The notes under the pieces: model-generated | The model's database searches: none | What the model was told of the DNA's origin: nothing | What the model saw: the letters and a program-made list of their open reading frames with translations, nothing else | Made by a program: the position numbers and the translations under genes | DNA from: a virus | Lineage: Duplodnaviria; Caudoviricetes | IMG/VR virus record: IMGVR_UViG_3300011437_000019 | Coordinates: 1-34,466 of that record | DNA length: 34,466 nucleotides | Reading direction: 5' to 3' (one strand) | Part shown: positions 1,703 to 34,466 of the stretch, piece by piece | How positions within the stretch are numbered: the stretch's first letter is position 1 | How the letters are laid out: each line of letters starts with the position of its first letter

Positions 1703-1731
1703 TTGACACCTCGGGTTGACCCGAGTATTTT
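1703..1731 (+). promoter_or_regulatory. Sigma70-type promoter with a palindrome in the spacer
   Basis: TTGACA (1703-1708), 17 nt, TATTTT (1726-1731). Spacer holds CTCGGGT-TG-ACCCGAG. ATG at 1738. Confidence 0.65.
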
Positions 1732-1737
1732 GGAGTG

Positions 1738-2118
1738 ATGTTACCGCCTGAACCTGAAGACCCCAAGCTACCGCCGCCGGGCATCCCCCTGGTTGGTCAA
1801 TTCTTCCTAGGCTGGGATGAGCATGCCGTCGTCGTCTACCGAGCGCCTAAGAAGGGCCGACCGATCCCGGTGGCCTACTTCGTTGAGCTCGACAACGCCC
1901 TGGCTTGGGTGCTGAAAAAAGTGACCCTACGCCAGCGCCGGTCCAAGGCGGGCGGCTCACTCGCCGCCTTGGTAAAGGCTCATCGCCGGGCGGTCGCTAA
2001 CCTGGAGGGCTTCAAGGTCCGCTACGAGGCGGCCGCCAAGGTGCTGACCAAGATGGCCCTTGACAACCCCAGGAAGCTGGCCAAGATGGACCTTGACAAC
2101 CCCAGGAAGCTTGAGTAA
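1738..2118 (+). CDS. Hypothetical protein
   Basis: Clean ORF downstream of the promoter with coding-like codon usage; C-terminal duplicated KMxLDNPRKL. Confidence 0.7.
   Translation: MLPPEPEDPKLPPPGIPLVGQFFLGWDEHAVVVYRAPKKGRPIPVAYFVELDNALAWVLKKVTLRQRRSKAGGSLAALVKAHRRAVANLEGFKVRYEAAAKVLTKMALDNPRKLAKMDLDNPRKLE
2048..2111 (+). repeat. 33-bp period tandem duplication
   Basis: CCAAGATGGCCCTTGACAACCCCAGGAAGCT (2048-2078) and CCAAGATGGACCTTGACAACCCCAGGAAGCT (2081-2111), one mismatch. Confidence 0.9.
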
Positions 2119-2121
2119 GCT
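2093..2121 (+). promoter_or_regulatory. Sigma70-type promoter for the beta-helix gene
   Basis: TTGACA (2093-2098), 17 nt, TAAGCT (2116-2121). ATG at 2128 with no Shine-Dalgarno. Confidence 0.6.
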
Positions 2122-2127
2122 TACGCT

Positions 2128-2985
2128 ATGACCATCTATCTGTCCTCTCCGTCCCCCCTGGCCTCCCAGACCGTCCTGACCAAGAACTTCCAGGTCAAGG
2201 GAGCCTCAGATGGGCAAGCCTTCCAGAACACGACCTTCTCGTCGTCCTACACGATGGTCTTCCAGACGATGCCGGCCGGAGTTGGTCACACGAACCTGAC
2301 CTTCAAGGACTGCTTCATCAACGGCAACACCCACCCCGGAAACAAGTGGGGCGCCCACTGCATCGGCATCATGTCTGGTCGCGCCGACCGGGTTTACGCC
2401 ACGGCTCACAACGAGCACGCCTTCTACTGGGAGATACCCGGCGGCTACGAGTTCGTCGACTGCACGTCCGAGGCCGGCTCGCAGGGATGGCAGATTGAGG
2501 ACCGCGAGTTCACGTCCAGCGGCGCCAATATGTGGCCGACGGGCTACGACCGCAGCCAGATGAAGGACGTCACCTGGCGCCGCTGCTGGGCCCGCGAGTG
2601 TGGGCAGCCATACGGGGACCGGCCGTCCTATGCCTTCGCTTTGTATCGGGAGGCGGGTCACTACTTGCTGGAGAACTGCCAGGTGACCCGCGGACTGGAC
2701 AACGGGATGAGCTCGGACCAACACATGCGGGCCTTACTCATGCGGGGTAAGGCGCCGACCTTGGAGATTCACGGCGGAGTCTTCGACTATGCGGAGCCCG
2801 ACCGGGCCCTGGTTTACCTGATGAGCGGGGCTGGGGCTTTGATCACGCGGGCACACTTCCCCCGCGGGGTGATCGAGATTGGCAAGGACATGAAGAACGT
2901 GGTCATCAAGGGCTGCACCGGGGGGGCTGTGATTCGCACCCCGGACGGTAAGAGCCGGCCGGTCACCCAAGGCATCGAGTACTGA
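2128..2985 (+). CDS. Right-handed parallel beta-helix (pectin lyase-like) protein
   Basis: Repeated strand-turn motifs: NLTFKDCFI, YEFVDCTS, DVTWRRCWA, HYLLENCQV, NVVIKGCTG. Confidence 0.65.
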   Translation: MTIYLSSPSPLASQTVLTKNFQVKGASDGQAFQNTTFSSSYTMVFQTMPAGVGHTNLTFKDCFINGNTHPGNKWGAHCIGIMSGRADRVYATAHNEHAFYWEIPGGYEFVDCTSEAGSQGWQIEDREFTSSGANMWPTGYDRSQMKDVTWRRCWARECGQPYGDRPSYAFALYREAGHYLLENCQVTRGLDNGMSSDQHMRALLMRGKAPTLEIHGGVFDYAEPDRALVYLMSGAGALITRAHFPRGVIEIGKDMKNVVIKGCTGGAVIRTPDGKSRPVTQGIEY

Positions 2986-2987
2986 TT

Positions 2988-3045
2988 TATGTCGTCGAAC
3001 GACATATTATGTCATTCGACTAAGGAGCCTACTATGTCATCGAAC
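2988..3045. promoter_or_regulatory. Palindromic/direct repeat cluster (operator- or recombination-site-like)
   Basis: GTCGAAcGACATA-T-TATGTCaTTCGAC (2994-3020); three TATGTC-led copies at 2988, 3008 and 3033. Confidence 0.55.
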
Positions 3046-3639
3046 CGCCTACGTTCCCTACTCGTCTGGCTGCTCCTGTGCGTGGCCTCGTGGGTCATCG
3101 TGATCGTGGGCGTCGACGCGGTGGTCTACGGCATCGTAGAGCTGGTTCAGCGCCTATCGGCGCCGGCCCGGCTTGACTCGCTTCCGGCTGGGTCCCGGAC
3201 GTCGTTTCCCGACCACCGCTTCCAGGGTGTTCGGTTTCCCCTCCTTGCCGCCGAAGACAGCCTTGGCCAACCAAGCTCGGGCCTCGCGCTCGTACCGCCT
3301 GGCCTTCCCCTGGACTGCGGCCTTGACCTCGTCCTGCCGCATGCGTTCACTGAACCAACCTACCGCGCCGGCGACGGCCTCGATCCGGTCGTCGTGTGCC
3401 AACGCCCCGCGCTCGCGGGTGAGGCGGGTCATCTGGTAGAACAGTTGGTACAGGTGCCCCTTGTCCCCCCTGGCCGGGTCGTACTTCTGGTCCCTGAGGA
3501 TAAGACCCCTGTCTACCACGAGCCGGTGCTGGTTCATGACGGGCTCCAGCACGTCGATGATCCGGAGCTCCTTCTGCCCGACGCTGTGTATCCCTTCGAC
3601 GGTGCAGGGGTATATCGCCATCATCACCGGCCGCAGTAG
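3034..3639 (+). CDS. Membrane protein with N-terminal hydrophobic helix; 3' part antisense to terL
   Basis: Strong RBS TAAGGAG (3021-3027) before ATG 3034; LLVWLLLCVASWVIVIVGV transmembrane segment. No stop until about 485 bp inside terL. Confidence 0.5.
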   Translation: MSSNRLRSLLVWLLLCVASWVIVIVGVDAVVYGIVELVQRLSAPARLDSLPAGSRTSFPDHRFQGVRFPLLAAEDSLGQPSSGLALVPPGLPLDCGLDLVLPHAFTEPTYRAGDGLDPVVVCQRPALAGEAGHLVEQLVQVPLVPPGRVVLLVPEDKTPVYHEPVLVHDGLQHVDDPELLLPDAVYPFDGAGVYRHHHRPQ

Positions 3640-5220
3640 CTCCTCGAACATCCCGTCCCCGAAGTTAGTCTCTACCAGCACCCGGTTAGCCTTATGGACC
3701 TTAGCCGTCTCCGCGATGCGCTTCAGCGCGTCACCCTGATAGCCCCCGGAGAAACCTTGGCAGTCGGACAGGTACAAGCGACCGTGGAGGTGCTTGACGA
3801 CAGCAAAGGCCAGCTCATCCTGGCCGCGCCCCGCGGGGTCGACGTAGAGGACCGACTCCTGGTAGGGGCTGCGCTCCGCCGAGATGGCTGCCGGCCGATG
3901 GTAACGGTCTCCTTCCAGGCCGGTGAGGGGCAGGTCACGGATTTCGAGGTCTGGTCCTCCGCCCCAGGACACCTTGTCGGGGGCAGTCTCCAGGTCGAGG
4001 TCCATCACCACAAGGTCGGCAAGCTTCAGAGGGTAACGGTCCGCGTCGCTGAGCGTCGTGTCCAGCAAGAATTGCAGGGCAAAGGTGCTGGCCCCGATGC
4101 TGAGCTCGCGGCGGAGCAGGTCGTCGTCGTTGAACCGGCCGGGCTCGGTCGGCTGACCGGGGAAGCGGGCGCTGAGGCTGCCTCCGGCGAGGCTGGGGTC
4201 GTCCAACAGGCGCTGCAAGATCAGGGGAGCCAGACGCCGGCAGCCCGACTGGAACGGCTCGGGCGGGACTACTACGAGACCCTCGCCGAGGAGCGGGCTA
4301 CCGAGGCTGTCAAGACCGAGAGGTTGCCCGGCAGGGTTGACCAGGTCGCGGCTGGCGGGGACGTCCTCACCAAGAGCAGTGCCCCCGCGGGGGAGCCGAT
4401 CGTCACCGGGGGGAGCCGTGCGGCGGTCTTGCGCGCCGCCTTCAACGCTAGGCGCCGCCGCGGTCGGGGCTAGCTCGCCTGAGGCGTAGCGGTTTATCTG
4501 GTCGAGGGGTGGATACCGCGCCGGCCAGACGCGGACGCTGAAGCCCTTCTTAGGTAGGTCCACGTAGACCGACAGCTCGGTCTGAGGGGTGCCGAGGAGG
4601 ACTAGGCGCCCGCCCGGCAGCACGATCGAGTCTAGCTGCTTCCTGGCGGCCTCGATGCGGTCCCGACCGCCTTGAGTGTAGGCTTTGGACTCTGTCTCCA
4701 GGTCGTCCGCTACGATCATCTTGCCGCGACTGCCGACCAGTCCGCCCGATACGCCGACAGACTTCAGGCTGGGCGCCTTGCTGGGGTGTCGGCCAGCTAC
4801 GTCGAAAGCTTTCACGGACGAGCGCTGCTCCCGGGATGGGGCCAGGTGCCTGAGCTCCGGTACGCCGTCGAGCAGGGCCAGCACGAGCTGCGACATCGTC
4901 GCCGCATCGTCGTACGTAGCGCTAACGGACAGCACAGGCGCATCGATGTCGCACAACCACTCCCAACAGATGAGCGTGGAAGTCAGGGTCGACTTGGCCA
5001 ACCCGCGGAAGCCTTGGACCATGACGCGGTTGTTAGGCGCTTCGTGCGGCCAACGGCTCATGTCGGGACCGCGTTGGAGGAACTGCGCTACGTCGTACTG
5101 AATATCGGTCGGCTCGGGGAGGCCGAGGATCTGCCAGGCTCGGTAGACCAGGTTGCGCAGGTCGCCGTCGAACGCCGCGGTCTCGGGGTAGCGGTCGATG
5201 AGGGCTCGGTAAGAGACCAC
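3154..5220 (-). CDS. terL: Terminase large subunit (T7 gp19-like) with an 80-aa insertion
   Basis: Walker A-like GFRGLAKS, Walker B IVADDLE, GTPQ, WPARYP, nuclease DPAGRGQDE and HDDRIEA motifs. Confidence 0.95.
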   Translation of the reverse strand: MVSYRALIDRYPETAAFDGDLRNLVYRAWQILGLPEPTDIQYDVAQFLQRGPDMSRWPHEAPNNRVMVQGFRGLAKSTLTSTLICWEWLCDIDAPVLSVSATYDDAATMSQLVLALLDGVPELRHLAPSREQRSSVKAFDVAGRHPSKAPSLKSVGVSGGLVGSRGKMIVADDLETESKAYTQGGRDRIEAARKQLDSIVLPGGRLVLLGTPQTELSVYVDLPKKGFSVRVWPARYPPLDQINRYASGELAPTAAAPSVEGGAQDRRTAPPGDDRLPRGGTALGEDVPASRDLVNPAGQPLGLDSLGSPLLGEGLVVVPPEPFQSGCRRLAPLILQRLLDDPSLAGGSLSARFPGQPTEPGRFNDDDLLRRELSIGASTFALQFLLDTTLSDADRYPLKLADLVVMDLDLETAPDKVSWGGGPDLEIRDLPLTGLEGDRYHRPAAISAERSPYQESVLYVDPAGRGQDELAFAVVKHLHGRLYLSDCQGFSGGYQGDALKRIAETAKVHKANRVLVETNFGDGMFEELLRPVMMAIYPCTVEGIHSVGQKELRIIDVLEPVMNQHRLVVDRGLILRDQKYDPARGDKGHLYQLFYQMTRLTRERGALAHDDRIEAVAGAVGWFSERMRQDEVKAAVQGKARRYEREARAWLAKAVFGGKEGKPNTLEAVVGKRRPGPSRKRVKPGRRR

Positions 5221-5223
5221 GCG

Positions 5224-5505
5224 CTACAGCCCGACCGCCTCACGGTACTCTTCGCCACCTTCCTCGTCGGGTTGGCGGAAGGGCAGGCCATCAACCAACG
5301 TCGGGCCGCGTGCGCGACTGAAGCCGGGGGCGTCGGTGCGGATACGGTTGTCGGCGAGCATCTGGCGTGCTTCCTTGAGCTCCGCAGGCGTCAGGGAGTC
5401 CAGCTCGGCCTTGTTGGCCAGCTTCTCGCAGATGGCCTTGTGCAGCCGGATAAGGTGCTGCCGGGATGCTTCCATCTGGTCAGCGTCGTCGGGTTCTTGA
5501 CTCAC
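5224..5505 (-). CDS. terS: Terminase small subunit (gp18-like)
   Basis: Directly upstream of terL; LH...TPAELKEARQMLADNRI...LPF pattern of T7-like TerS. Confidence 0.8.
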   Translation of the reverse strand: MSQEPDDADQMEASRQHLIRLHKAICEKLANKAELDSLTPAELKEARQMLADNRIRTDAPGFSRARGPTLVDGLPFRQPDEEGGEEYREAVGL

Positions 5506-5696
5506 GGTTTGACTCCAATCTTGGTCATGATGTATGAGGACAGCGCCGCAACGACGGCCGCAGCGCCTAAGACTTTCGACCAGGCCCGCTCTAAGCTGCC
5601 AACCCGGTGTTGTATGTCCGCTTGGAACAACATCAGGCTATCCACCTTGGCCTCCAAGCGTCCGAGGGCTCGAATGATCTCCGTCTCTTCGTTCAT
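5502..5696 (-). CDS. Small coiled-coil plus C-terminal transmembrane protein (holin position)
   Basis: 64 aa, LGRLEAKVD coiled coil then hydrophobic VLGAAAVVAALSSYI; lies between tail fibre and terS. Confidence 0.55.
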   Translation of the reverse strand: MNEETEIIRALGRLEAKVDSLMLFQADIQHRVGSLERAWSKVLGAAAVVAALSSYIMTKIGVKP

Positions 5697-6808
5697 GCGA
5701 GTTGCTCCACCAGGACGAAGGTCTGCGCTTCGACGTCGATCGGCTCGGCAGCTTGGTTGACCTTAGCGCGCAGGACCAGCACTTTAGGCGTCCCGCTGAC
5801 CACGACCTTCAGCACGGCCGTCTCGCTGTACCGGGGCTCGTGTGGCGGTGCGTCGTTGGTAGCCAAAGTGGCCAACGCGCCGTTGTAGTATGACACCTGG
5901 GCCGGACCGTCCGTGCCGTCGGTCAGCCGCCACAGGAGCTCTGTGACCAGCGGTCCCGCGTCGGCGCTGACGAAGCTGACGTTGACGGTTAGCAGGTAGG
6001 TGCCGTCCTCTTCAAGCGTGATCGTGTCCGTACCGAGGGTATAGTGCGGGGTCGCGTTGTTGTGTTCGATCACCGTGCCGGCGGCGAAGTCTAGTCGGGT
6101 CCCGGCGCTCTCGTACCAGGTGCCCGACGCGCTGAACTGCACCACCGTGGCAGTGACGTTGGCGCGAATCATCGGACGGCCCGCCTGGAGCGCGGTGATC
6201 GCCGCCTGCGCCGCAGCCATCTGCGTCTGCAAGGTGTCTACGCCGATGTCCGCCTCGACCTGAGCGGGCGTCCGGGTGACCCACGCGCCCGCCTTGACCT
6301 GGATGAACTTGTCGTTGTCCGCCCCGGTCACCGGCGGCAGGTTTCCGGCCACGATGGCAGCCGCCTGTAGTTGCGCCAGCGTTGTCGCATCCTGCTGGTC
6401 GACCGCGTCCGCGACGTTGGTGATCCGATTACCTTCCGCGTCCCAGTTACCACTACCGTCGTCCAGGAGCTGCAAGCTCTCTGCCGAGTCGTCCTGGGTC
6501 TCCTCGTGCTGGTAGACGAGCTGGAGGTACATGGTGTCCAGGTCCTCGGCCAAGATGCTCGACCCCTCGATCCAGTCCACGATCGGATCGGTCGGGGTGA
6601 CCCGCTTGATCTCGACGTACTCGCCGCCCGTCGCGGGGGTGACCAAGGTGACCTGCGTTCTCGCAGAGTTGACCGTGAACTCAGTCGGCTGCGTCAGCTC
6701 CACCTCGTCGACGAAGACGTGAATGTGGTCGCTGGATAGGGACGGGAAAGTTATTGCGAACACCGTCTGCGCCGGGGCTGCGGTGTAGGCGACGCGAGAG
6801 AGAGCCAT
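5693..6808 (-). CDS. Tail fibre protein (T7 gp17-like N-terminal adaptor)
   Basis: FAITFPSL...IHVFVD, IKRVTP, L.AEDLD...LQLVY..EE, WDAEGNRITNVADAVDQQDATT motifs; position after the gp16-like gene. Confidence 0.88.
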   Translation of the reverse strand: MALSRVAYTAAPAQTVFAITFPSLSSDHIHVFVDEVELTQPTEFTVNSARTQVTLVTPATGGEYVEIKRVTPTDPIVDWIEGSSILAEDLDTMYLQLVYQHEETQDDSAESLQLLDDGSGNWDAEGNRITNVADAVDQQDATTLAQLQAAAIVAGNLPPVTGADNDKFIQVKAGAWVTRTPAQVEADIGVDTLQTQMAAAQAAITALQAGRPMIRANVTATVVQFSASGTWYESAGTRLDFAAGTVIEHNNATPHYTLGTDTITLEEDGTYLLTVNVSFVSADAGPLVTELLWRLTDGTDGPAQVSYYNGALATLATNDAPPHEPRYSETAVLKVVVSGTPKVLVLRAKVNQAAEPIDVEAQTFVLVEQLA

Positions 6809-13408: not shown

Positions 13409-13900
13409 TCAGGCTTTGGGTTTGGCGGGGGCCGAGTTGTAGCCGCCGATAGCGGCACTGGCGATCTGCAAGCCGACGCCAAGCGGGCTCTGGTGTGGGA
13501 CGGCGTTGAAACGGTCTTGTTGCTGGGCCTGGATGCCGAGGCGCTGCGAGGCCAGGTCGAGCTCCGCGGCGCGTAGGTCGTGCAACTTGGTCGCCGTATT
13601 CTCGGCCTGCTGTCTCTCGAAGTCGTTGTAGAGCGACTCGATCGTGTTGCCCGCGACGCCGCCTCCGGCCGCCCCGGCTTGGAGCGCACCGCGAGCCTGT
13701 TGGCTTTCCCGGACGACCGAACGGATCGACATGGCGGTTGCCTCGCGCTCCTGGTTCTGGCGTTGCTCGACGTTCTTGTACTGCGAGATGGCCGAAGCGG
13801 TGGCCTGCTTCTCGTTCTCGTCGGCAACTTCCTCCTGCGCGCGGGCGCTTAGGGCGGCCATACTGGCCATCGCGACAGCCATAGAGACGGGATCACACAT
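13409..13900 (-). CDS. Internal virion protein B, gp14-like
   Basis: MCDPVSMA start, Ala/Gln-rich, AAGGGVAGNT motif. Confidence 0.8.
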   Translation of the reverse strand: MCDPVSMAVAMASMAALSARAQEEVADENEKQATASAISQYKNVEQRQNQEREATAMSIRSVVRESQQARGALQAGAAGGGVAGNTIESLYNDFERQQAENTATKLHDLRAAELDLASQRLGIQAQQQDRFNAVPHQSPLGVGLQIASAAIGGYNSAPAKPKA

Positions 13901-14258
13901 GATGTTTTGTTAGATAGTTGAGGGCCGCTTGTAGGGTAACGCGATTGTCTTTGAAGGCTCCCAGTCCTCGATTACACTCACCACACAATAGTGCACGAAC
14001 CGCGCCGGTGGAGTGATCATGATCCACGTTGAGGGCAGTAGAAGAGGTTTGAGTGCAGATAGCGCAACGACCACCCTGTTGAACTAACATCTTATCGTAC
14101 TGACCTATCGTGAGGCCATAAGTTCTGCGAAGACGATAGTCTCGTTTCCGACCGGGATTGCGCTTCTCCCATTGACGCTGCCTTTCTAAACACTGTTGGC
14201 GGTTTTTATGATACCAGCGTCGCGCATACTCAGCTTGTTTCTTTTTGTCGGTACTCAC
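13893..14258 (-). CDS. Endonuclease VII-family free-standing (homing) endonuclease
   Basis: YGLT..QY..M...QGGRCAIC, VDHDHSTGAVRALLCGECNRGLG; lower GC. Start at GTG 14258 is inferred. Confidence 0.85.
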   Translation of the reverse strand: MSTDKKKQAEYARRWYHKNRQQCLERQRQWEKRNPGRKRDYRLRRTYGLTIGQYDKMLVQQGGRCAICTQTSSTALNVDHDHSTGAVRALLCGECNRGLGAFKDNRVTLQAALNYLTKHHV

Positions 14259-14715
14259 AGGCGTAATAGGTTGCAGAGACGAAGGGTCGCTCTTCGACCC
14301 CGAAGCGGTCCACAACGCGACCGAGTTCAAATTCGAGCCAACGTAGCCACCGTAAATGAACTGTGTTTCGACAGTCCACCATGTTAGTGACAAGGTCGTA
14401 GTCCGCCGCGACCTTCTCCAACCATTCCTTCGACTGGCGTAGGAAGGTGATAGGGAACGCCTCGATATCCTTAGACCCCAGGAGCCAGACGTAGCCGATC
14501 GTGGGGTCCAGGGTTGACTTGATCACGCCGAACATCGCCGCAGGTCGACCCTCGTACTCCACGGTCCAACACTTACCGTGCTGAAGACCGTGGAGTAGGG
14601 ACTTCATCGGGCTGTGCCCGCAGGCGGCCTTGACCTCGGCCTCGTCCTCGGGGCGCAGGCGATCGTGTAGGGCCAGCACGTCGTCCTCCGTGGCCGGACG
14701 GACTTCGACACTCAC
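14230..14715 (-). CDS. Internal virion protein A / gp13-like GNAT-fold protein
   Basis: LRPEDEAEV, VWLLGS, NMVDCRNTVHLRWLRWLEF; GTGA overlap with the tail tube B stop. Confidence 0.8.
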   Translation of the reverse strand: MSVEVRPATEDDVLALHDRLRPEDEAEVKAACGHSPMKSLLHGLQHGKCWTVEYEGRPAAMFGVIKSTLDPTIGYVWLLGSKDIEAFPITFLRQSKEWLEKVAADYDLVTNMVDCRNTVHLRWLRWLEFELGRVVDRFGVEERPFVSATYYACEYRQKETS

Positions 14716-17868: not shown

Positions 17869-18831
17869 CTACGCGACGTCGACCTCGATCGCCGCCTCGG
17901 GACGGAGTTGGCCGTGGCCCATCGCCATCGACGCAACCAGCAGGTCGCCGCGGTACTCGATCATGTACTCCTGCTCCATGCGGAGCCCACGGAGTTGGAT
18001 CGAACCGATAGCCGACTTGTGCCACGCAACCGCCACGGTGTCCGTGAAGTCGCCGGTCGTCGAGTTGGCTTCGCCGGCATCGGCCGTGAAGTTCGTGGTC
18101 GGCATGAGAGTCGTCTTGACGAGCTCCAAGCCGGCCGCGCGGAAGACGTCGCCTTCGTGGAAGACGCCGTTGCTGCCGCCACCGAAGTCGCGGTTGATGA
18201 GGGACTTGTCTTGGACGATCGCGTAGTAGGCTTGCGGAGCCATAGCCAGGTAGCGATCTTCCTCGGGAACGTGCTTCTCGTCGAACTTCTGCGCGATCGA
18301 GAAAGCCGTAGCGACGGCGGAGGCGCCGTTGGTAGCGAAGTCGACGTCGAGGATCGTCTCGCCGGCTTCTTGGCCCGTGATGTTCGGGGTCGTGTTGCGA
18401 CCGGTGAGCACCAGCAGGCGGAGAAGGCGGGAGTCGAGCTCGACGGCCATGGCCCGACCAAGCTCGGTCGAGTACTCGCTCTGGACATCCCAGTGCGACT
18501 TCAGCTCTTCGATGTCGGAGACGAAGGTCGCCGCCAGGAGCTCGCCGTCGACCACGATGACCTGCTCGTTCTGAGCGAACAGGTTCAGGTTGGCGTTGGC
18601 CGGGTCGAGGATGTCATCCCCGATCGTGTGGTAGGACGTCAGTGCGCGACCGACGGCCATGAACTGCGCCGACTTGGCGCGCGAGATGGAACGCTTGCGG
18701 ATCTTGGGAGCGATCTTGATGAGCTTCGCAAAGCTCGACAGGACCTCCCCGCTGAAAACTTTTAGCCACAACGCCGCCGGGTCTCCGGCGAGGTTGATTT
18801 GACCCGGTCTTGAGGGACTAGTATCAGCCAT
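17869..18831 (-). CDS. Major capsid protein (gp10-like)
   Basis: ALWLKVFSGEVL, KSAQF, DVQSEYSTELGRAMA, GHGQLRPEAA. Confidence 0.96.
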   Translation of the reverse strand: MADTSPSRPGQINLAGDPAALWLKVFSGEVLSSFAKLIKIAPKIRKRSISRAKSAQFMAVGRALTSYHTIGDDILDPANANLNLFAQNEQVIVVDGELLAATFVSDIEELKSHWDVQSEYSTELGRAMAVELDSRLLRLLVLTGRNTTPNITGQEAGETILDVDFATNGASAVATAFSIAQKFDEKHVPEEDRYLAMAPQAYYAIVQDKSLINRDFGGGSNGVFHEGDVFRAAGLELVKTTLMPTTNFTADAGEANSTTGDFTDTVAVAWHKSAIGSIQLRGLRMEQEYMIEYRGDLLVASMAMGHGQLRPEAAIEVDVA

Positions 18832-18869: not shown

Positions 18870-19409
18870 CTAATCGCCGACGAGATCCGCGGATTGTCGG
18901 GGCTTGCGCTCCGGTCCGGCTGCGGGGAACAGGGAATAAGGGTCGTCCGACGTCGCCGAAGTGGCGGACGCTCGGTGTTTCATTAGGTAGGAGATGGCGT
19001 TGAGCAGCAGCGCGCCGGAATCTTTGAAACCTCCGAGGCCGATATTACAGGCGTTACAGAGGATATCGCGAAACGCGCCGGTCTCGTGATCGTGGTCAAC
19101 GCACTTCTTGTGCTTAGAGAAATCGTGACCGCAAATTTGACACGCCACGGCCGCCTCATACGAGTCCAACGCACGCGCTATGTCGGCCTCACGCATACGT
19201 TTCGTTTTGAGGTTACCGCGCCGCGTCCAACGAGGATTCTTTTGGCGATAGGCGTACTGCCGCTGACGGTTGTCTCGAGCCCACTGCCGCGCTGAAGCAC
19301 AGCTACACGGTTTACAGACGTGCTGAACGTCGCTACGTTTACCGCCTCGTTTGTAGAACTCCGTCAGCGGCTTGGTCTCGCCGCACTCACAGCACTTCTT
19401 AGTATCCAT
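18870..19409 (-). CDS. Endonuclease VII-family free-standing (homing) endonuclease
   Basis: N-terminal KKCCECGETKPLTEFY...CKPC zinc ribbon; CQICG, VDHDHETG, LCNACNIGLG. Start at ATG 19409 or 19433. Confidence 0.85.
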   Translation of the reverse strand: MDTKKCCECGETKPLTEFYKRGGKRSDVQHVCKPCSCASARQWARDNRQRQYAYRQKNPRWTRRGNLKTKRMREADIARALDSYEAAVACQICGHDFSKHKKCVDHDHETGAFRDILCNACNIGLGGFKDSGALLLNAISYLMKHRASATSATSDDPYSLFPAAGPERKPRQSADLVGD

Positions 19410-19429
19410 AGGTTCCTCTCGATCCGCCC

Positions 19430-19777
19430 TCAAGCCGCCGGAGGACGCTCACGCTCAACCGCGATGTCCCGACGCCTCGTCATGTTCCTAAAGTACCACA
19501 TAGCGGCGCCGATCAAGCCGGCCGGGGTCCACGCGGCCGGGTCGGCGAGCTGGTCGAACAGCCCCTCGCCGCGCGCCTTGACGTCGACGGCGACCGCCGC
19601 CAGCTCGTCGCGATACTCCTCCAGGGCGCCCTCGACCTCCTCCTGCGAGGCGGCCCGGTCTTCCAGGACCTGCTCCAGCTTGCTTTGCGCGTCAGCGAGG
19701 CGTTGCAGGTCACCCGAGGTGGCCAAGCAGCCGGTCAGGAGGGGAAGCGTGCACAGGGCGAGTAGTAGTTGTTTCAT
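19430..19777 (-). CDS. Lipoprotein with coiled coil and C-terminal hydrophobic segment (spanin candidate)
   Basis: MKQLLLALCTLPLLTG-C lipobox; helical middle; AGLIGAAMWYF followed by RNMTRRR. Confidence 0.6.
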   Translation of the reverse strand: MKQLLLALCTLPLLTGCLATSGDLQRLADAQSKLEQVLEDRAASQEEVEGALEEYRDELAAVAVDVKARGEGLFDQLADPAAWTPAGLIGAAMWYFRNMTRRRDIAVERERPPAA

Positions 19778-24344: not shown

Positions 24345-26164
24345 TAGTGTGTAGCACTCCAGTCGTTACCGATCTTGAATTCTCCAGTGAGGGGGCAACG
24401 AAGGCTGAAACGCTCCGTAGCGCTCTCGATCGCGGCCACCAGAAGCTTACCTACCTTATCCGCGTCCGTCGCGAGGCACTCGTACTGTAGCTCGTCGTGT
24501 ACGAACAGGACCTGAGCTGCGTCCAAGCCCGCGTCGCGGACCCAGAGGTCGGCCTGCACGACGGCGTGCTTCATCACGACCGACCCAAAGGACTGCAAGA
24601 GCGTATTTAGTGCGGCGTGCTCGCTGCGGGTAGGGACTCGCCGGCCGTCGAGTCCTTCTAAGTAACGGTTCGTGCGGTGCGCGTTCACGACCTTAGCTTT
24701 CAACTTGGCGAGCCCCGGCGTGCGACGTAGGAACTGCTCGGCCAGGAGCTTTGCTTGCTTGAGCGAGCAGCCCATCTCTTTGGCGAGTTTCTGTGTACCG
24801 GCCCCATAGACCCAACAATACAGAAACTTCTTCGCTTGCGTTCGACTCTCGAAGCCTCCCGCGATCTGGTTCGCCGTGTGCGGGTCCCCAGCCCCGACGA
24901 CCCGAGCGTAGGCCCCATCGTCCCACTCGGCCAGGTAGTGCGCCAGAGCTCGGAGCTCCAGGTTGGAGGCGTCCGCCCCGACCAGGACTCGCCCCTTTGG
25001 GGCGACGAACAGTGACCGACAGCGTGTACCCCACTCCGTCACCTTCGCCAGGTAGTCCGGCGGTAACGGCTTGGCGGTCTTGACGCTAGGGATGTTACCG
25101 AGATTAGGGGCGGAATGCGAGCATCGGCTCGTGACCGTACCCATAGGGTCGATCTTCCCACGAATGCGGTCGTCCTCGCCGACGTGCGCCAGCCAGGACT
25201 TAGACTTCTTCGTACTCTCGACGAGCATGGAGAGGCGCTTGCTTACCATAGCACGCTCCGCCATCCACTTCGCCTCAGGGTACGGCAGGGACATTAGTTG
25301 GAGCTCCGTCATCGCCGGCTTACCTAGTTCCGTGTACTTCGTAGGCTTCCAGCCATACTTTCGGGTCAAAGCCTCGGCGCAGTGGTCCCGGGAACCGGGG
25401 TTGAACGTGACCTGGAACTCCGTGCGGATCTTCTTCTTGGGCGTTACCCGGACGCGGTCGAACGGCGGGATGGCGGCATGCAGTTGCTCATCTAGCTCAG
25501 CCCGGCGGACCAACAGGTCGCGCACCAGGTCGTCCGCGGCCTTGCGGTCGAACAGGACGCCGTGAGTCTGCTGCTTGGCTAGGACAGCCGCGAATCGCGA
25601 CTCCAGCTCCAGAGCTTCGACAGGGGTGTACTTGGTTTGCAACCAGTCGTATAGATCGGCGCAGACGGCGACGTCTTGTAGGTTATAAGTGATCATCTCA
25701 TCCGTCAAGCGTTCCCACGATAACGGCTTGGCTTCTTTACGGTTCCCGATCCGCCAGCCCCAGGCTTTCAAGCTGTGTAGGCCGGTCAGTTCTGGCGGGA
25801 GATCCGACGTACCGGCGTTGCGACGCGCGAAGTCCAGCTCGCGAAGATTAGGGTAGCGCACTTTCGCGGCGAGCTGCGTATCGTAGAGCTTCGCCACCGG
25901 TAGGTCAGCGCTTAGTACCCCGCGCAGGACTGGTGCATCGAAACCTAGGATGTTGTGACCCAGCACGAGGTCGGCCGACTCGATCAAGCGGACTCCGTCG
26001 GCTAGGGTGCCGTCGGGTAGGATCGTGACGCCCTCTGGGGAATCATGAAAGATGTAGTTCCGGCCAAGTTCGTCCCGTGCGCCGATCATGTGGACGCTGG
26101 TTTGCCAGGCGGGACGCTGGAAGTTTTTGACTTCCGTGGTTTCCAGGTCGATGACGAGTTTCAT
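24344..26164 (-). CDS. DNA polymerase, family A (gp5-like) with 3'-5' exonuclease
   Basis: IDLET, GHNILGFD, YNLQD; motif A DASNLELR, motif B AKKFLYCWVYG, motif C VHDE. Start at ATG 26164 (ATGA overlap). Confidence 0.96.
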   Translation of the reverse strand: MKLVIDLETTEVKNFQRPAWQTSVHMIGARDELGRNYIFHDSPEGVTILPDGTLADGVRLIESADLVLGHNILGFDAPVLRGVLSADLPVAKLYDTQLAAKVRYPNLRELDFARRNAGTSDLPPELTGLHSLKAWGWRIGNRKEAKPLSWERLTDEMITYNLQDVAVCADLYDWLQTKYTPVEALELESRFAAVLAKQQTHGVLFDRKAADDLVRDLLVRRAELDEQLHAAIPPFDRVRVTPKKKIRTEFQVTFNPGSRDHCAEALTRKYGWKPTKYTELGKPAMTELQLMSLPYPEAKWMAERAMVSKRLSMLVESTKKSKSWLAHVGEDDRIRGKIDPMGTVTSRCSHSAPNLGNIPSVKTAKPLPPDYLAKVTEWGTRCRSLFVAPKGRVLVGADASNLELRALAHYLAEWDDGAYARVVGAGDPHTANQIAGGFESRTQAKKFLYCWVYGAGTQKLAKEMGCSLKQAKLLAEQFLRRTPGLAKLKAKVVNAHRTNRYLEGLDGRRVPTRSEHAALNTLLQSFGSVVMKHAVVQADLWVRDAGLDAAQVLFVHDELQYECLATDADKVGKLLVAAIESATERFSLRCPLTGEFKIGNDWSATH

Positions 26165-26601
26165 TTCAACCATCCCCAACGGCGACGGCTTTTTATCTGA
26201 TTTATGTGGGCTTGTGAGATATCATAACGCACAGCTAGCGTCCGCGAAGAAACGTCAGCTAACCGAATCTGTCGAACTTGCTCTTCAGATAGCTTTACAC
26301 ACCCGTTTCGGCTACCGCGCGCCGTCCGACCTTTTACCACCGCATCGGCCGAATTGTCTGCGGCCGTACCCTCAAACATATGCGAAAGTCGAACGCAAAG
26401 CCGATTGTCACATCGATGTAATAGGTGTCGAGTCGGCCACGTTCCCGTCGTTAGAAACCAAGCCACGCGATGTACTCGCCTAGGCGTCCCGTTTATCGCA
26501 AATTGACCGTAGCCTCCTCGCGTCTTGGATGCCCTCCACTCCCAGCAACCCGGCCCCTTCCGCACCTTGGCCCAGAACCTCTCTTCAAGCGAGCCCCTCA
26601 C
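26161..26601 (-). CDS. HNH homing endonuclease
   Basis: RFWAKV, CWEW, GYGQF, HRVAW, LHRCDNRLCV...H...GT..DN; C-terminal HTH-like segment. Confidence 0.9.
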   Translation of the reverse strand: MRGSLEERFWAKVRKGPGCWEWRASKTRGGYGQFAINGTPRRVHRVAWFLTTGTWPTRHLLHRCDNRLCVRLSHMFEGTAADNSADAVVKGRTARGSRNGCVKLSEEQVRQIRLADVSSRTLAVRYDISQAHINQIKSRRRWGWLK

Positions 26602-33144: not shown

Positions 33145-33965
33145 GAGAGCCGCCCCGCTTTCTCGACCATATGTAACGCCTGCTGCAAGTCTTGCACACC
33201 CGCGTGCTGGTAGCGCATCGCGGACTGCACATCCTTGTGCCCAAGGAAGCGCATGACCACAGGTAAGGATACCCCGGAGGCCGCCAGCTTGGTGCCGAAA
33301 GTGTGGCGCAAAGCGTGCGGCACGAAGTCGCGGTCCGTAATGTTCAGCGCGACCATGGCACGGCGCCAGGCATGGTTGAGTTGACTCGACGTAACCGGGA
33401 ACGGGCGACGAGCCGACGGGCTACCTAGCGCGACCATGGCGGTAGGGGTGAGCGGTACGGTGCGCACCTCCCCATTCTTGGTGTGCGTGAAGGTGACCCG
33501 GGACGTAGGTAGGTCTACATTGGTCCACGTCAAAGCCAAGGCTTCACCCACTCGACAACCCGTGTCGGCGAGGAATTGCACTAACCGGCCTAGGGTGGCG
33601 TCAGCTTGACCAATCACGCCCACCATGCTAGCGACCTCCAACTCGGTGAGCACACGCGATCGAGCTCGCGGACGCGGCAGGCGCGGAACCGGCACCTTGT
33701 CAGGCACCTTGTACCCCCGCTCTCTGGCGTAACTCAGCAGCCCGGAGAGTACGGCCGCATGTCGCGCTACCGTAGCGGGCGCGTAGAGCGTCGCCAACTC
33801 GACCAGGTAACGGCGCAAGGTCGCCCCCGCTAGAGCGCGCGATACGGTTTTCTCTGTCCCGGCCCACCTTGCGTAGGCACGCAAAGCCGCTGCGGCGTGT
33901 TCCGCAGAGGCTATATAGGCGAAGCGGGTGGCTAACGCAGCGTCAACTAGGCGCCAGATGTTCAC
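33141..33965 (-). CDS. int: Tyrosine recombinase / integrase
   Basis: DTGCRVGE (R), TKNG (K), HALRHT (HxxR), LGH, RY catalytic Tyr. Confidence 0.95.
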   Translation of the reverse strand: MNIWRLVDAALATRFAYIASAEHAAAALRAYARWAGTEKTVSRALAGATLRRYLVELATLYAPATVARHAAVLSGLLSYARERGYKVPDKVPVPRLPRPRARSRVLTELEVASMVGVIGQADATLGRLVQFLADTGCRVGEALALTWTNVDLPTSRVTFTHTKNGEVRTVPLTPTAMVALGSPSARRPFPVTSSQLNHAWRRAMVALNITDRDFVPHALRHTFGTKLAASGVSLPVVMRFLGHKDVQSAMRYQHAGVQDLQQALHMVEKAGRLS

Positions 33966-34162
33966 ACCTTGAGCCTCCTAAGCGCGGCCCTAGTGGCGGC
34001 ACACGTGGCGGCATCCGTGGCGTCCCAAGTGGTGTCCCTAGTGGCGACCCAAGTGGTGTCCCTAGTGGCGACCCAAGTGGCGTCCCTAGTGGCGGCCCTA
34101 GTGGCGGCCCTAGTGGCGGCCCAAGTGGCGGCCTTGGTGGCAGCAAGGTTCTGTTGCTTCAT
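33962..34162 (-). CDS. Repeat mini-gene, last copy: MKQQNL-(xAAT)n
   Basis: AGGAGG RBS, ATGA overlap with the previous copy, GTGA overlap with the integrase start. Confidence 0.6.
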   Translation of the reverse strand: MKQQNLAATKAATWAATRAATRAATRDATWVATRDTTWVATRDTTWDATDAATCAATRAALRRLKV

Positions 34163-34395
34163 CGCGGAGACCTCCTAAGCGCGACCCAAGTGGCGGCCTC
34201 AGTAGCGACCCAAGTGGCGACCCAAGTGGTGGCCCAAGTGGCGGCCCTAGTGGCGGCCTCAGTGGCGGCCCTAGTGGCGGCATCCGTGGCGGCCTCAGTG
34301 TATGTCCAAGTGGCGGCCTCAGTGGCGGCAGCAGTGGCGGCCCAAGTGGCGGTCCTAGTGGCGACCCTAGTGGCGGCAAGGTTCTGTTGCTTCAT
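34159..34395 (-). CDS. Repeat mini-gene, middle copy: MKQQNL-(xAAT)n
   Basis: Identical RBS and N-terminus; ends LRRSPR with ATGA overlap. Confidence 0.6.
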   Translation of the reverse strand: MKQQNLAATRVATRTATWAATAAATEAATWTYTEAATDAATRAATEAATRAATWATTWVATWVATEAATWVALRRSPR

Positions 34396-34466
34396 CGCGG
34401 AGACCTCCTAAGCGCGGCCTTAGTGGCGGCATCAGTGGCGGCCCAAGTGGCGGTCCTAGTGGCGAC
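34392..34466 (-). CDS. Repeat mini-gene, upstream copy (partial, runs off the window)
   Basis: ...VATRTATWAATDAATKAALRRSPR-stop, same ending as the middle copy. Confidence 0.55.
   Translation of the reverse strand, partial: VATRTATWAATDAATKAALRRSPR

Follow-up and report, generated by a model that had tools for sequence, protein, structure and literature searches.

A putative antisense gene overprinted on an in-frame insertion in the terminase gene of T7-like phages

Why should the large terminase gene (terL) of a T7-like phage carry 240 nucleotides that its homologues lack, in frame and apparently coding on the opposite strand? The window (the whole stretch of DNA that was analysed, 34,466 nucleotides) comes from an uncultivated T7-like phage (34.5-kb record) with a single-subunit RNA polymerase, T7-type structural genes and, in addition, an integrase gene; its sequence occurs in freshwater-sediment and groundwater metagenomes, and none of the runs listed for it is an RNA run. 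The initial annotation, made from the letters alone, had offered three explanations of the insertion: a spliced or ribosome-bypassed element, a nested antisense gene or a tolerated linker between the ATPase and nuclease domains. The features discussed here are listed below; L176 is a related phage.

1703-1731, plus strand: sigma-70-like promoter match (TTGACA-17-TATTTT), a candidate source of plus-strand RNA (pattern scan)
1735-3639, plus strand: three open reading frames (ORFs) leading up to ORF-A, at 1735-2118, 2128-2985 and 3034-3639 (ORF list, codon scores)
3154-5220, minus strand: terL, T7-type large terminase, 688 aa in one open frame (phrog_38, PF22530, PhiV-1 and T7 chains)
3694-4473, plus strand: ORF-A, a putative in-register antisense ORF of 259 aa, the last 79 codons lying in the insertion, with a basic tail (sequence comparison)
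3694-3696, plus strand: likely ATG start, formed by the CAT codon of TerL His509, which is CAT in 3/3 phages with DNA (codon comparison)
4221-4233, minus strand: 3' flank with the conserved RLAP; it can pair with 4470-4482, and the pairing is not conserved (folding and shuffles)
4234-4473, minus strand: 80-codon in-frame insertion, TerL residues 250-329, a predicted disordered loop (alignment, AlphaFold pLDDT)
4282-4305, plus strand: antisense motif LAEERATE, LAERRAAE in L176 (window/L176 alignment)
4390-4413, plus strand: antisense motif GEPIVTGG (GEPVVTGG in L176), where the insert is most conserved (window/L176 alignment)
4471-4482, plus strand: TAG that closes ORF-A, followed in register by a TGA (4480-4482), the sole TCA serine codon of terL (codon count)

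The protein belongs to the T7-type terminases, which combine an ATPase with an RNase H-like nuclease: it matches phrog_38 (E 3e-89) and PF22530, and its top match is the TerL of PhiV-1. That some 240 nucleotides are inserted relative to homologues was borne out when 148 TerLs, chosen out of 272 proteins plus L176, were aligned: the linker from WPARYP to LAP comprises 92 residues in the window and 6-20 residues in 144 of the 148 sequences (mode 11, in 119 TerLs), the long linker being found in the remaining four. As described initially, LAP occurs twice, 80 codons apart, at TerL codons 250 (nt 4473) and 330 (nt 4233), and the plus-strand frame reads TPAARLERLGRDYYETLAEE...RRRRGRG, with its TAG exactly at the boundary (4471-4473). 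A misassembly, which would have explained the insertion away, was considered and rejected: single contigs of runs X1 (possibly the source sample of the window), X8 and X12 cross both junctions without differences or joints, run X24 matching in scraps only, four other assemblies (the IMG/VR/JGI copies L001, L002, L185 and L186) agree with the window at every position of the insert, and no strain variants were found within it. Searches of the rest of the genome (blastn, tblastn) for a source of the insert gave matches at chance level only.

In the AlphaFold model of TerL, based on the 148-row alignment (mean pLDDT 86.6, pTM 0.81, core mostly >90), low confidence is limited to residues 249-326 (pLDDT <50 over 249-276 and 278-326) and the C-terminal tail. 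The insert loops out where the ATPase domain ends, between two helices; it exits helix 239-246 and re-enters before helix 332-340, a position which, by terminase anatomy, we take to be the lid region of this domain. The idea of a tolerated linker therefore survives as far as a permissive loop is concerned, but not as a connection between the ATPase and nuclease domains, since the PF22530 nuclease match begins only at residue 460. Judging from this model, the extra stretch in the TerLs of the clade likely becomes a disordered loop on an intact motor, and the insertion is likely translated as a dispensable, predicted-disordered part of TerL. TerL is very probably read through the insert.

Inserts at the same site were found in P0003 (linker of 89 residues), L176 (199) and P0124, the TerL of L189 (99), and these, together with the window, constitute one branch (SH-aLRT 98 in a quick tree of 48 rows). 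P0003 is available as a protein only, and DNA comparisons cover the window, L176 and L189. All four inserts are in frame and without a stop; in L176, which was found by an unbiased Walker A DNA pattern, this frame-keeping is not an effect of ascertainment, whereas P0003 and P0124 were found as whole proteins, so that their open frame partly is. The extra sequence amounts to about 80-190 codons (234-564 nt). In L176 it holds two antisense ORFs with spacers, the TerL frame being unbroken, and the strand composition of the P0003 insert is ambiguous. The inserts are mutually unlike, the window/L176 pair excepted. Further clade members were added neither by four more DNA patterns and scans nor by GTDB genomes or a search of shorter proteins, and the JGI metagenomes yielded near-copies of the window and one short contig without a terL match, but no new clade member. 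On sequence comparison, the insertion site is a clade-wide variable slot, a point that the initial annotation had overlooked. The TerLs of this clade have other oddities at residues 45-80 and 180-197, namely an insertion of 10-11 residues before Walker A and the motif TQ[GA]GR[DE]R, as well as a Walker A variant, GFRGLAKST, in 3/4 members and a basic C-terminal extension.

Which strand of the insert is selected? The plus-strand codon bias reported at the outset is real: under the phage's own codon model the antisense reading of the insert scores 0.15 and the sense reading 0.05, whereas none of 630 overlapping 80-codon control windows shows such a reversal, and GC3 is 0.86 on the plus strand versus 0.73 on the TerL strand. 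The inserts of the window and L176 align in the antisense frame with a score of 89 and 39% identity (0/2000 shuffles as good) and in the TerL frame with a score of 65 (11/2000), and the antisense products have LAE.RA.E and GEP[IV]VTGG..AV.R in common. Between these two inserts, which are the one sequence pair of this test, 14 changes are silent in the antisense frame only and 3 in the TerL frame only, versus 9 and 95 in ordinary terL (Fisher p 6e-10), a pattern of purifying selection in the antisense frame; the TerL-frame alignment, biased the opposite way, still gives 4 antisense-only versus 2 TerL-only silent changes (p 0.002). The similarity is unlikely to be a leftover, because silent sites of terL between clade phages are at chance level. 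The opposite picture, a linker conserved in the TerL frame without plus-strand bias, had been named beforehand as one that would undo the antisense reading; the TerL-frame residues proved less conserved than the antisense ones. A plus-strand protein is thus quite probably under selection.

The earlier suggestion of a nested antisense gene held as regards the coding signal, but it missed the start, which probably lies 540 nt outside the insert, at ATG 3694; the antisense frame lacks a start within the window insert, and the inserts with DNA have none in common. The corresponding ATG is found at position 499 in L176 and 1420 in L189, and the products comprise 259, 276 and 243 aa in the window, L176 and L189, respectively. 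The open frame has an ATG made from CAT in 3/3 phages and a stop within the insert in 3/3. Two patterns, both noticed after looking, bear on its ends. Firstly, the two other histidine codons shared by clade terLs are CAC in all three phages and, among 129 NNY residues conserved in the three phages (all shared genes), only His509 has the rare T in all three, none of the other 128 having T in even two; P0003 also has histidine in this column. Secondly, each terL has a single TCA codon (1/40, 1/45 and 1/42 serine codons), always within 30 codons after WPARYP, where it yields an antisense TGA, and the TCA of L176 that matches window 4480-4482 is the stop of a second antisense gene, ORF-B. The antisense frame from the ATG to the insert is free of stops in 3/3 clade phages versus 4/18 GC-rich non-clade terLs (18 of 56 distinct terL loci); long open antisense frames (297, 258, 223 and 211 codons) are also present in other genes of the genome. 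The missing Shine-Dalgarno sequence at 3694 is no objection, because many genes of the window phage lack one too. Taken together, codon comparisons favour ATG 3694 as the start, with some reserve.

The 180 codons of ORF-A that overlap ordinary terL show little of the signal seen in the insert. Their four-fold site identity is 0.44 (0.42 elsewhere), and three-way identical codons number 37 versus 30.4 expected (z 1.8). Compared with L176, there are 56 TerL-only and 15 antisense-only silent changes, a slight antisense enrichment (p 0.025), and compared with L189 there is no such enrichment. Under synonymous randomisation with own codon usage, the antisense codon score reaches z 2.8 in the window, 0.0 in L176 and 0.8 in L189; a larger antisense-codon contrast with the 18 non-clade terLs is mostly composition.

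The second nested antisense gene, ORF-B (L176 1339-1602), lies in the same register as ORF-A and encodes a membrane-protein-like product of 87 aa with an N-terminal hydrophobic helix (KD19 3.27). It has an ATG start with a Shine-Dalgarno energy of -12.7, a GC3 of 0.86 versus 0.61 and a synonymous-codon score of 0.39 versus -0.10, and it ends at the TGA at the far edge of the L176 insert. The L189 insert likewise holds an in-register antisense frame, ending RRVRDGTIRR-TGA; no homology of this tail is detectable (771/1000 shuffles do equally well), and it has a weak codon score (0.07 versus -0.04). With ORF-B added in L176 and an unrelated ORF-A tail in L189, the loop would seem to work as a cargo slot.

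No family, homologue or ESM Atlas match was found for full-length ORF-A. Homologues of its tail were absent from 604 candidates of 43-167 aa and from 50,697 GenBank phage records (which gave none for ORF-B either), IMG/VR returned the clade's own loci only, and neither exact sequence, ORF-A or ORF-B, is present in a 15-billion-protein collection. ESM Atlas matches of the tail, to viral clusters (0.93) and to a T7 scaffold cluster (0.88), are a lead only, as recognition did not reach the threshold; the window phage has an intact scaffold gene of its own. AlphaFold gave ORF-A a pLDDT of 41.8 (3 sequences), with helices 182-208 and 242-255 at low confidence. Any named function for the antisense product would be doubtful.

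Upstream of ORF-A, the promoter match at 1703-1731 is one found versus 0.6 expected, and alone not beyond chance; its spacer contains a palindrome (1710-1725), possibly an operator. No promoter- or terminator-like sites were detected in or beside the insert of the window or L176, nor a plus-strand terminator-like site downstream up to 6000. The third leading ORF (3034-3639) resembles a small membrane-protein gene with a good Shine-Dalgarno sequence; its frame continues for ~160 codons antisense to the terL end, which it overlaps in register, and it is convincingly coding only before reaching terL. All eight strain variants in this overlap are silent in TerL, and 7/8 alter the plus-strand residue. 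Eight strain differences, all TerL-silent, are clustered at 3316-3424 in a gene that is otherwise nearly invariant, which resembles a recombined patch. The first leading ORF (1735-2118), which gave no alignment with ORF 507-950 of L189, carries at its 3' end (window 2036-2113) a 33-nt tandem unit (MDLDNPRKLAK-like) in two copies, and two more copies are present in the related assemblies L002 and L185.

Several further features of these genomes were recorded. L185 and L186 share ~96.7% identity with the window over 1-2113 and 99.7-99.8% further in. Three free-standing endonuclease VII or HNH genes (13893-14393, 18870-19433 and 26161-26601) are located amid core genes, and ~32 imperfect 12-nt units with a repeated spacer block (33960-34466) adjoin the integrase gene; the L189 record also opens with a short tandem array. 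No Shine-Dalgarno sequence was seen at the listed start of several genes (17869-18831 and other late ones, with the major capsid gene among them), possibly a clue to the type of host. The L189 phage has, at its early end, a tandem pair of paralogous genes made of hexapeptide repeats with xAxVFG units (L196 4692-6280, G001).

What, then, explains the insertion best? Our preferred reading, to which we assign a probability of roughly 0.65, is that an antisense gene (3694-4473) is overprinted on terL and that the permissive TerL loop houses its free C-terminus and further cargo. The insertion would likely be kept because the opposite strand encodes a putative accessory protein whose free C-terminal part lies there. 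ORF-A would be read codon-for-codon against terL between ATG 3694 and TAG 4473; TerL would dictate the first 180 codons, and selection on ORF-A itself would act only in the loop. Such in-register reading is tolerated in a GC-rich genome, because an opposite-strand stop needs a rare TTA, CTA or TCA codon. More speculatively, a plus-strand accessory operon behind a candidate host-type promoter at 1703-1731 would run head-on into terL, with ORF-A as its distal end. Its RNA would continue through terL, and ribosomes would start at 3694, read the 180 codons and then add the basic helical tail. The permissive loop may have let this tail grow and, in L176, also have taken in a membrane-protein gene. 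It may be speculated that translation of the long, weakly constrained part would keep the antisense RNA occupied by ribosomes as far as the tail and cargo, protecting it as has been proposed for narnaviruses; that the same RNA would damp terL until late; and that the accessory unit would be expressed early or in lysogeny. By analogy with olg1 of phage Fc02, the likeliest role would be an accessory function, either early or lysogenic; the two are equally plausible, because an integrase was not found in the L189 record (85% complete). As for the duplicated LAP, antisense Arg-Gly-TAG spells LAP backwards (CGG GGC TAG), which would explain the duplication without recoding, and the first LAP would most simply be a by-product of this kind, or else an old target-site duplication. 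The sequence TAG-CTC-GCC-TGA in the window could be the remnant left after loss of an ORF-B-like gene.

Among the alternatives, the one that survives best, though we find it improbable, is a relic. An inverted cassette or piece of a gene would have entered a permissive loop in register; its expression would since have been lost, and only the TerL frame would still matter. It would fit with inserts that are mutually unlike (except in the window and L176) and have no homologue elsewhere, with an unconstrained overlapped part and with a degenerate first LAP copy in L176 (SGNDLVP, SGELAP in the window), which could mark a target-site duplication. However, with TerL silent sites at chance, neither 39% antisense identity with changes that are silent antisense nor the rare codons CAT and TCA would be expected of a neutral relic.

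Slightly less probable is a short nested gene confined to the insert, which would begin at a non-AUG codon close to the boundary (ACG 4234 behind GGGGAG), the upstream frame being incidental. Selection is clear only inside the insert, the upstream codons evolve as TerL only, and a Shine-Dalgarno-like site (-7.5) precedes ACG 4234; L176, however, has CCG at this place, the inserts share no start and the conserved CAT of His509 is left unexplained.

We give still less credit to the view that the loop is selected as TerL protein, be it as an interaction loop or as a shield against Avs2, Avs3 and Upx, the antisense signal being secondary. According to an excerpt of PMC13601566, these three proteins sense the terminase, and Avs2 binds its ATPase domain via a large, shape-complementary pocket. 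The insert indeed appears at the end of the Avs2-bound ATPase domain and is kept in 4/4 clade members, but its TerL-frame residues are less conserved than its antisense residues. Such selection can hold alongside an antisense gene, and shielding may be a possible side benefit of the loop.

Weakest of all is removal of the segment, whether by splicing of RNA or protein or by ribosomal bypassing, which would bring the two LAP sites together. The flanks 4470-4482 and 4221-4233 do pair at 12/13 positions with one G-U, as first stated, and the pairing is formed in both the minimum free energy (MFE) and centroid structures; the L189 flanks also pair well relative to their own genome (7/338), and an excerpt of PMC10732093 describes a precedent, translational bypassing over 7-10-nt frame-breaking gaps in terL of Streptomyces phage Hau3. 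In the window the pairing is marginal, being equalled in 5/352 genome windows and by 37/500 shuffled flanks, and in the three phages with DNA it does not exceed shuffles (37, 242 and 66 of 500 as good). The fold of the insert region, a check proposed in the initial annotation, is no better than shuffles (z +0.48), and the same is true of the inserts of the three phages with DNA (z +1.07, -0.28 and +0.24). The LAP duplication is limited to the window and absent from its three relatives, L176 having SGNDLVP at the position of SGELAP. The absence of a group I/II intron core and of intein termini, both noted at first sight, was confirmed: there were 0 Rfam matches at E<=5 over 2900-5800, the fold z is not negative, none of the four inserts has an HN end and the window insert has no Pfam match. 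GAG-CTA and CGT-CTG are not matched take-off and landing sites, and the frame is kept without a stop in 4/4 inserts of different lengths, whereas the Hau3 gaps break it. Splicing or bypassing, the first of the explanations originally offered, is thus very unlikely, because neither the LAP duplication nor the end-pairing is conserved.

If the overprinted antisense gene is accepted, an essential, conserved phage motor would carry foreign genes within its own coding sequence, unsplit, unspliced and unrecoded, and such nested genes would escape gene callers. For the debate on long antisense genes, the locus would be a natural example that comes with its own control, as a TerL-synonymous change of CAT to CAC weakens the ATG to GTG. 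The T7-type terminase loop would tolerate at least 188 extra residues, which may be useful for tagging and for testing terminase-sensing defences. A bolder version, which we regard as possible but hardly the likelier outcome, is a two-way cargo slot, in which antisense accessory genes are gained, swapped and lost in register, TerL accommodates their mirror image as a disordered loop and the 180-codon reverse frame, which lies over the nuclease region, is kept open since its translation is needed to reach the cargo. If true, a dsDNA phage would be using an ambigrammatic strategy, one that might in addition hide its terminase from the sensors of the host.

Both antisense overlaps and nested genes have been described in phages before; open-access full text (main articles) yielded no account of an in-frame terminase loop that offers in-register antisense genes a variable slot. 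Small genes nested in a T7-type terL are exemplified by T7 genes 19.2 and 19.3 in gene 19, which are same-strand and out-of-frame and are not known to involve a TerL insertion, while ORF-A is antisense and associated with one. Phage morons resemble the clade cargo in being lineage-variable accessory genes in or near packaging genes, but they sit between genes and have a promoter and terminator of their own, and the insert lies inside terL, with no such site detected in or beside it in the window or L176. Interruptions of terL by introns or homing endonucleases are also known; in Ralstonia phage BOESR1, for instance, terL is annotated as two coding sequences, split further downstream by a same-strand endonuclease gene; clade terLs are one open frame, with the cargo on the opposite strand. 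T4 gene 60 and Hau3 terL have extra sequence in an essential phage gene (a terminase, too, in Hau3), but the gaps described in the excerpt of PMC10732093 and for T4 are of 7-50 nt and frame-breaking, whereas the inserts here are of 234-564 nt, in frame and without matched codons. In temperate Pseudomonas phage Fc02, an excerpt of PMC9936078 reports an opposite-strand coding overlap (olg1/gene 10), which is similar to ORF-A in its antisense arrangement and small accessory product, the strands being split between lysogeny and the lytic cycle; that overlap is situated in the lysis-lysogeny control region, whereas here an essential terminase has an in-frame loop holding antisense coding sequence and variable cargo. 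Finally, ambigrammatic narnaviruses have a long, homologue-less reverse ORF over an essential enzyme gene, and its translation is proposed to protect the RNA (10.1101/2020.12.18.423567); as may be the case for ORF-A, translation itself may be what counts; those are RNA viruses with a near-full-length reverse ORF, whereas the locus described here belongs to a dsDNA phage and combines a partial overlap with a separately selected tail.
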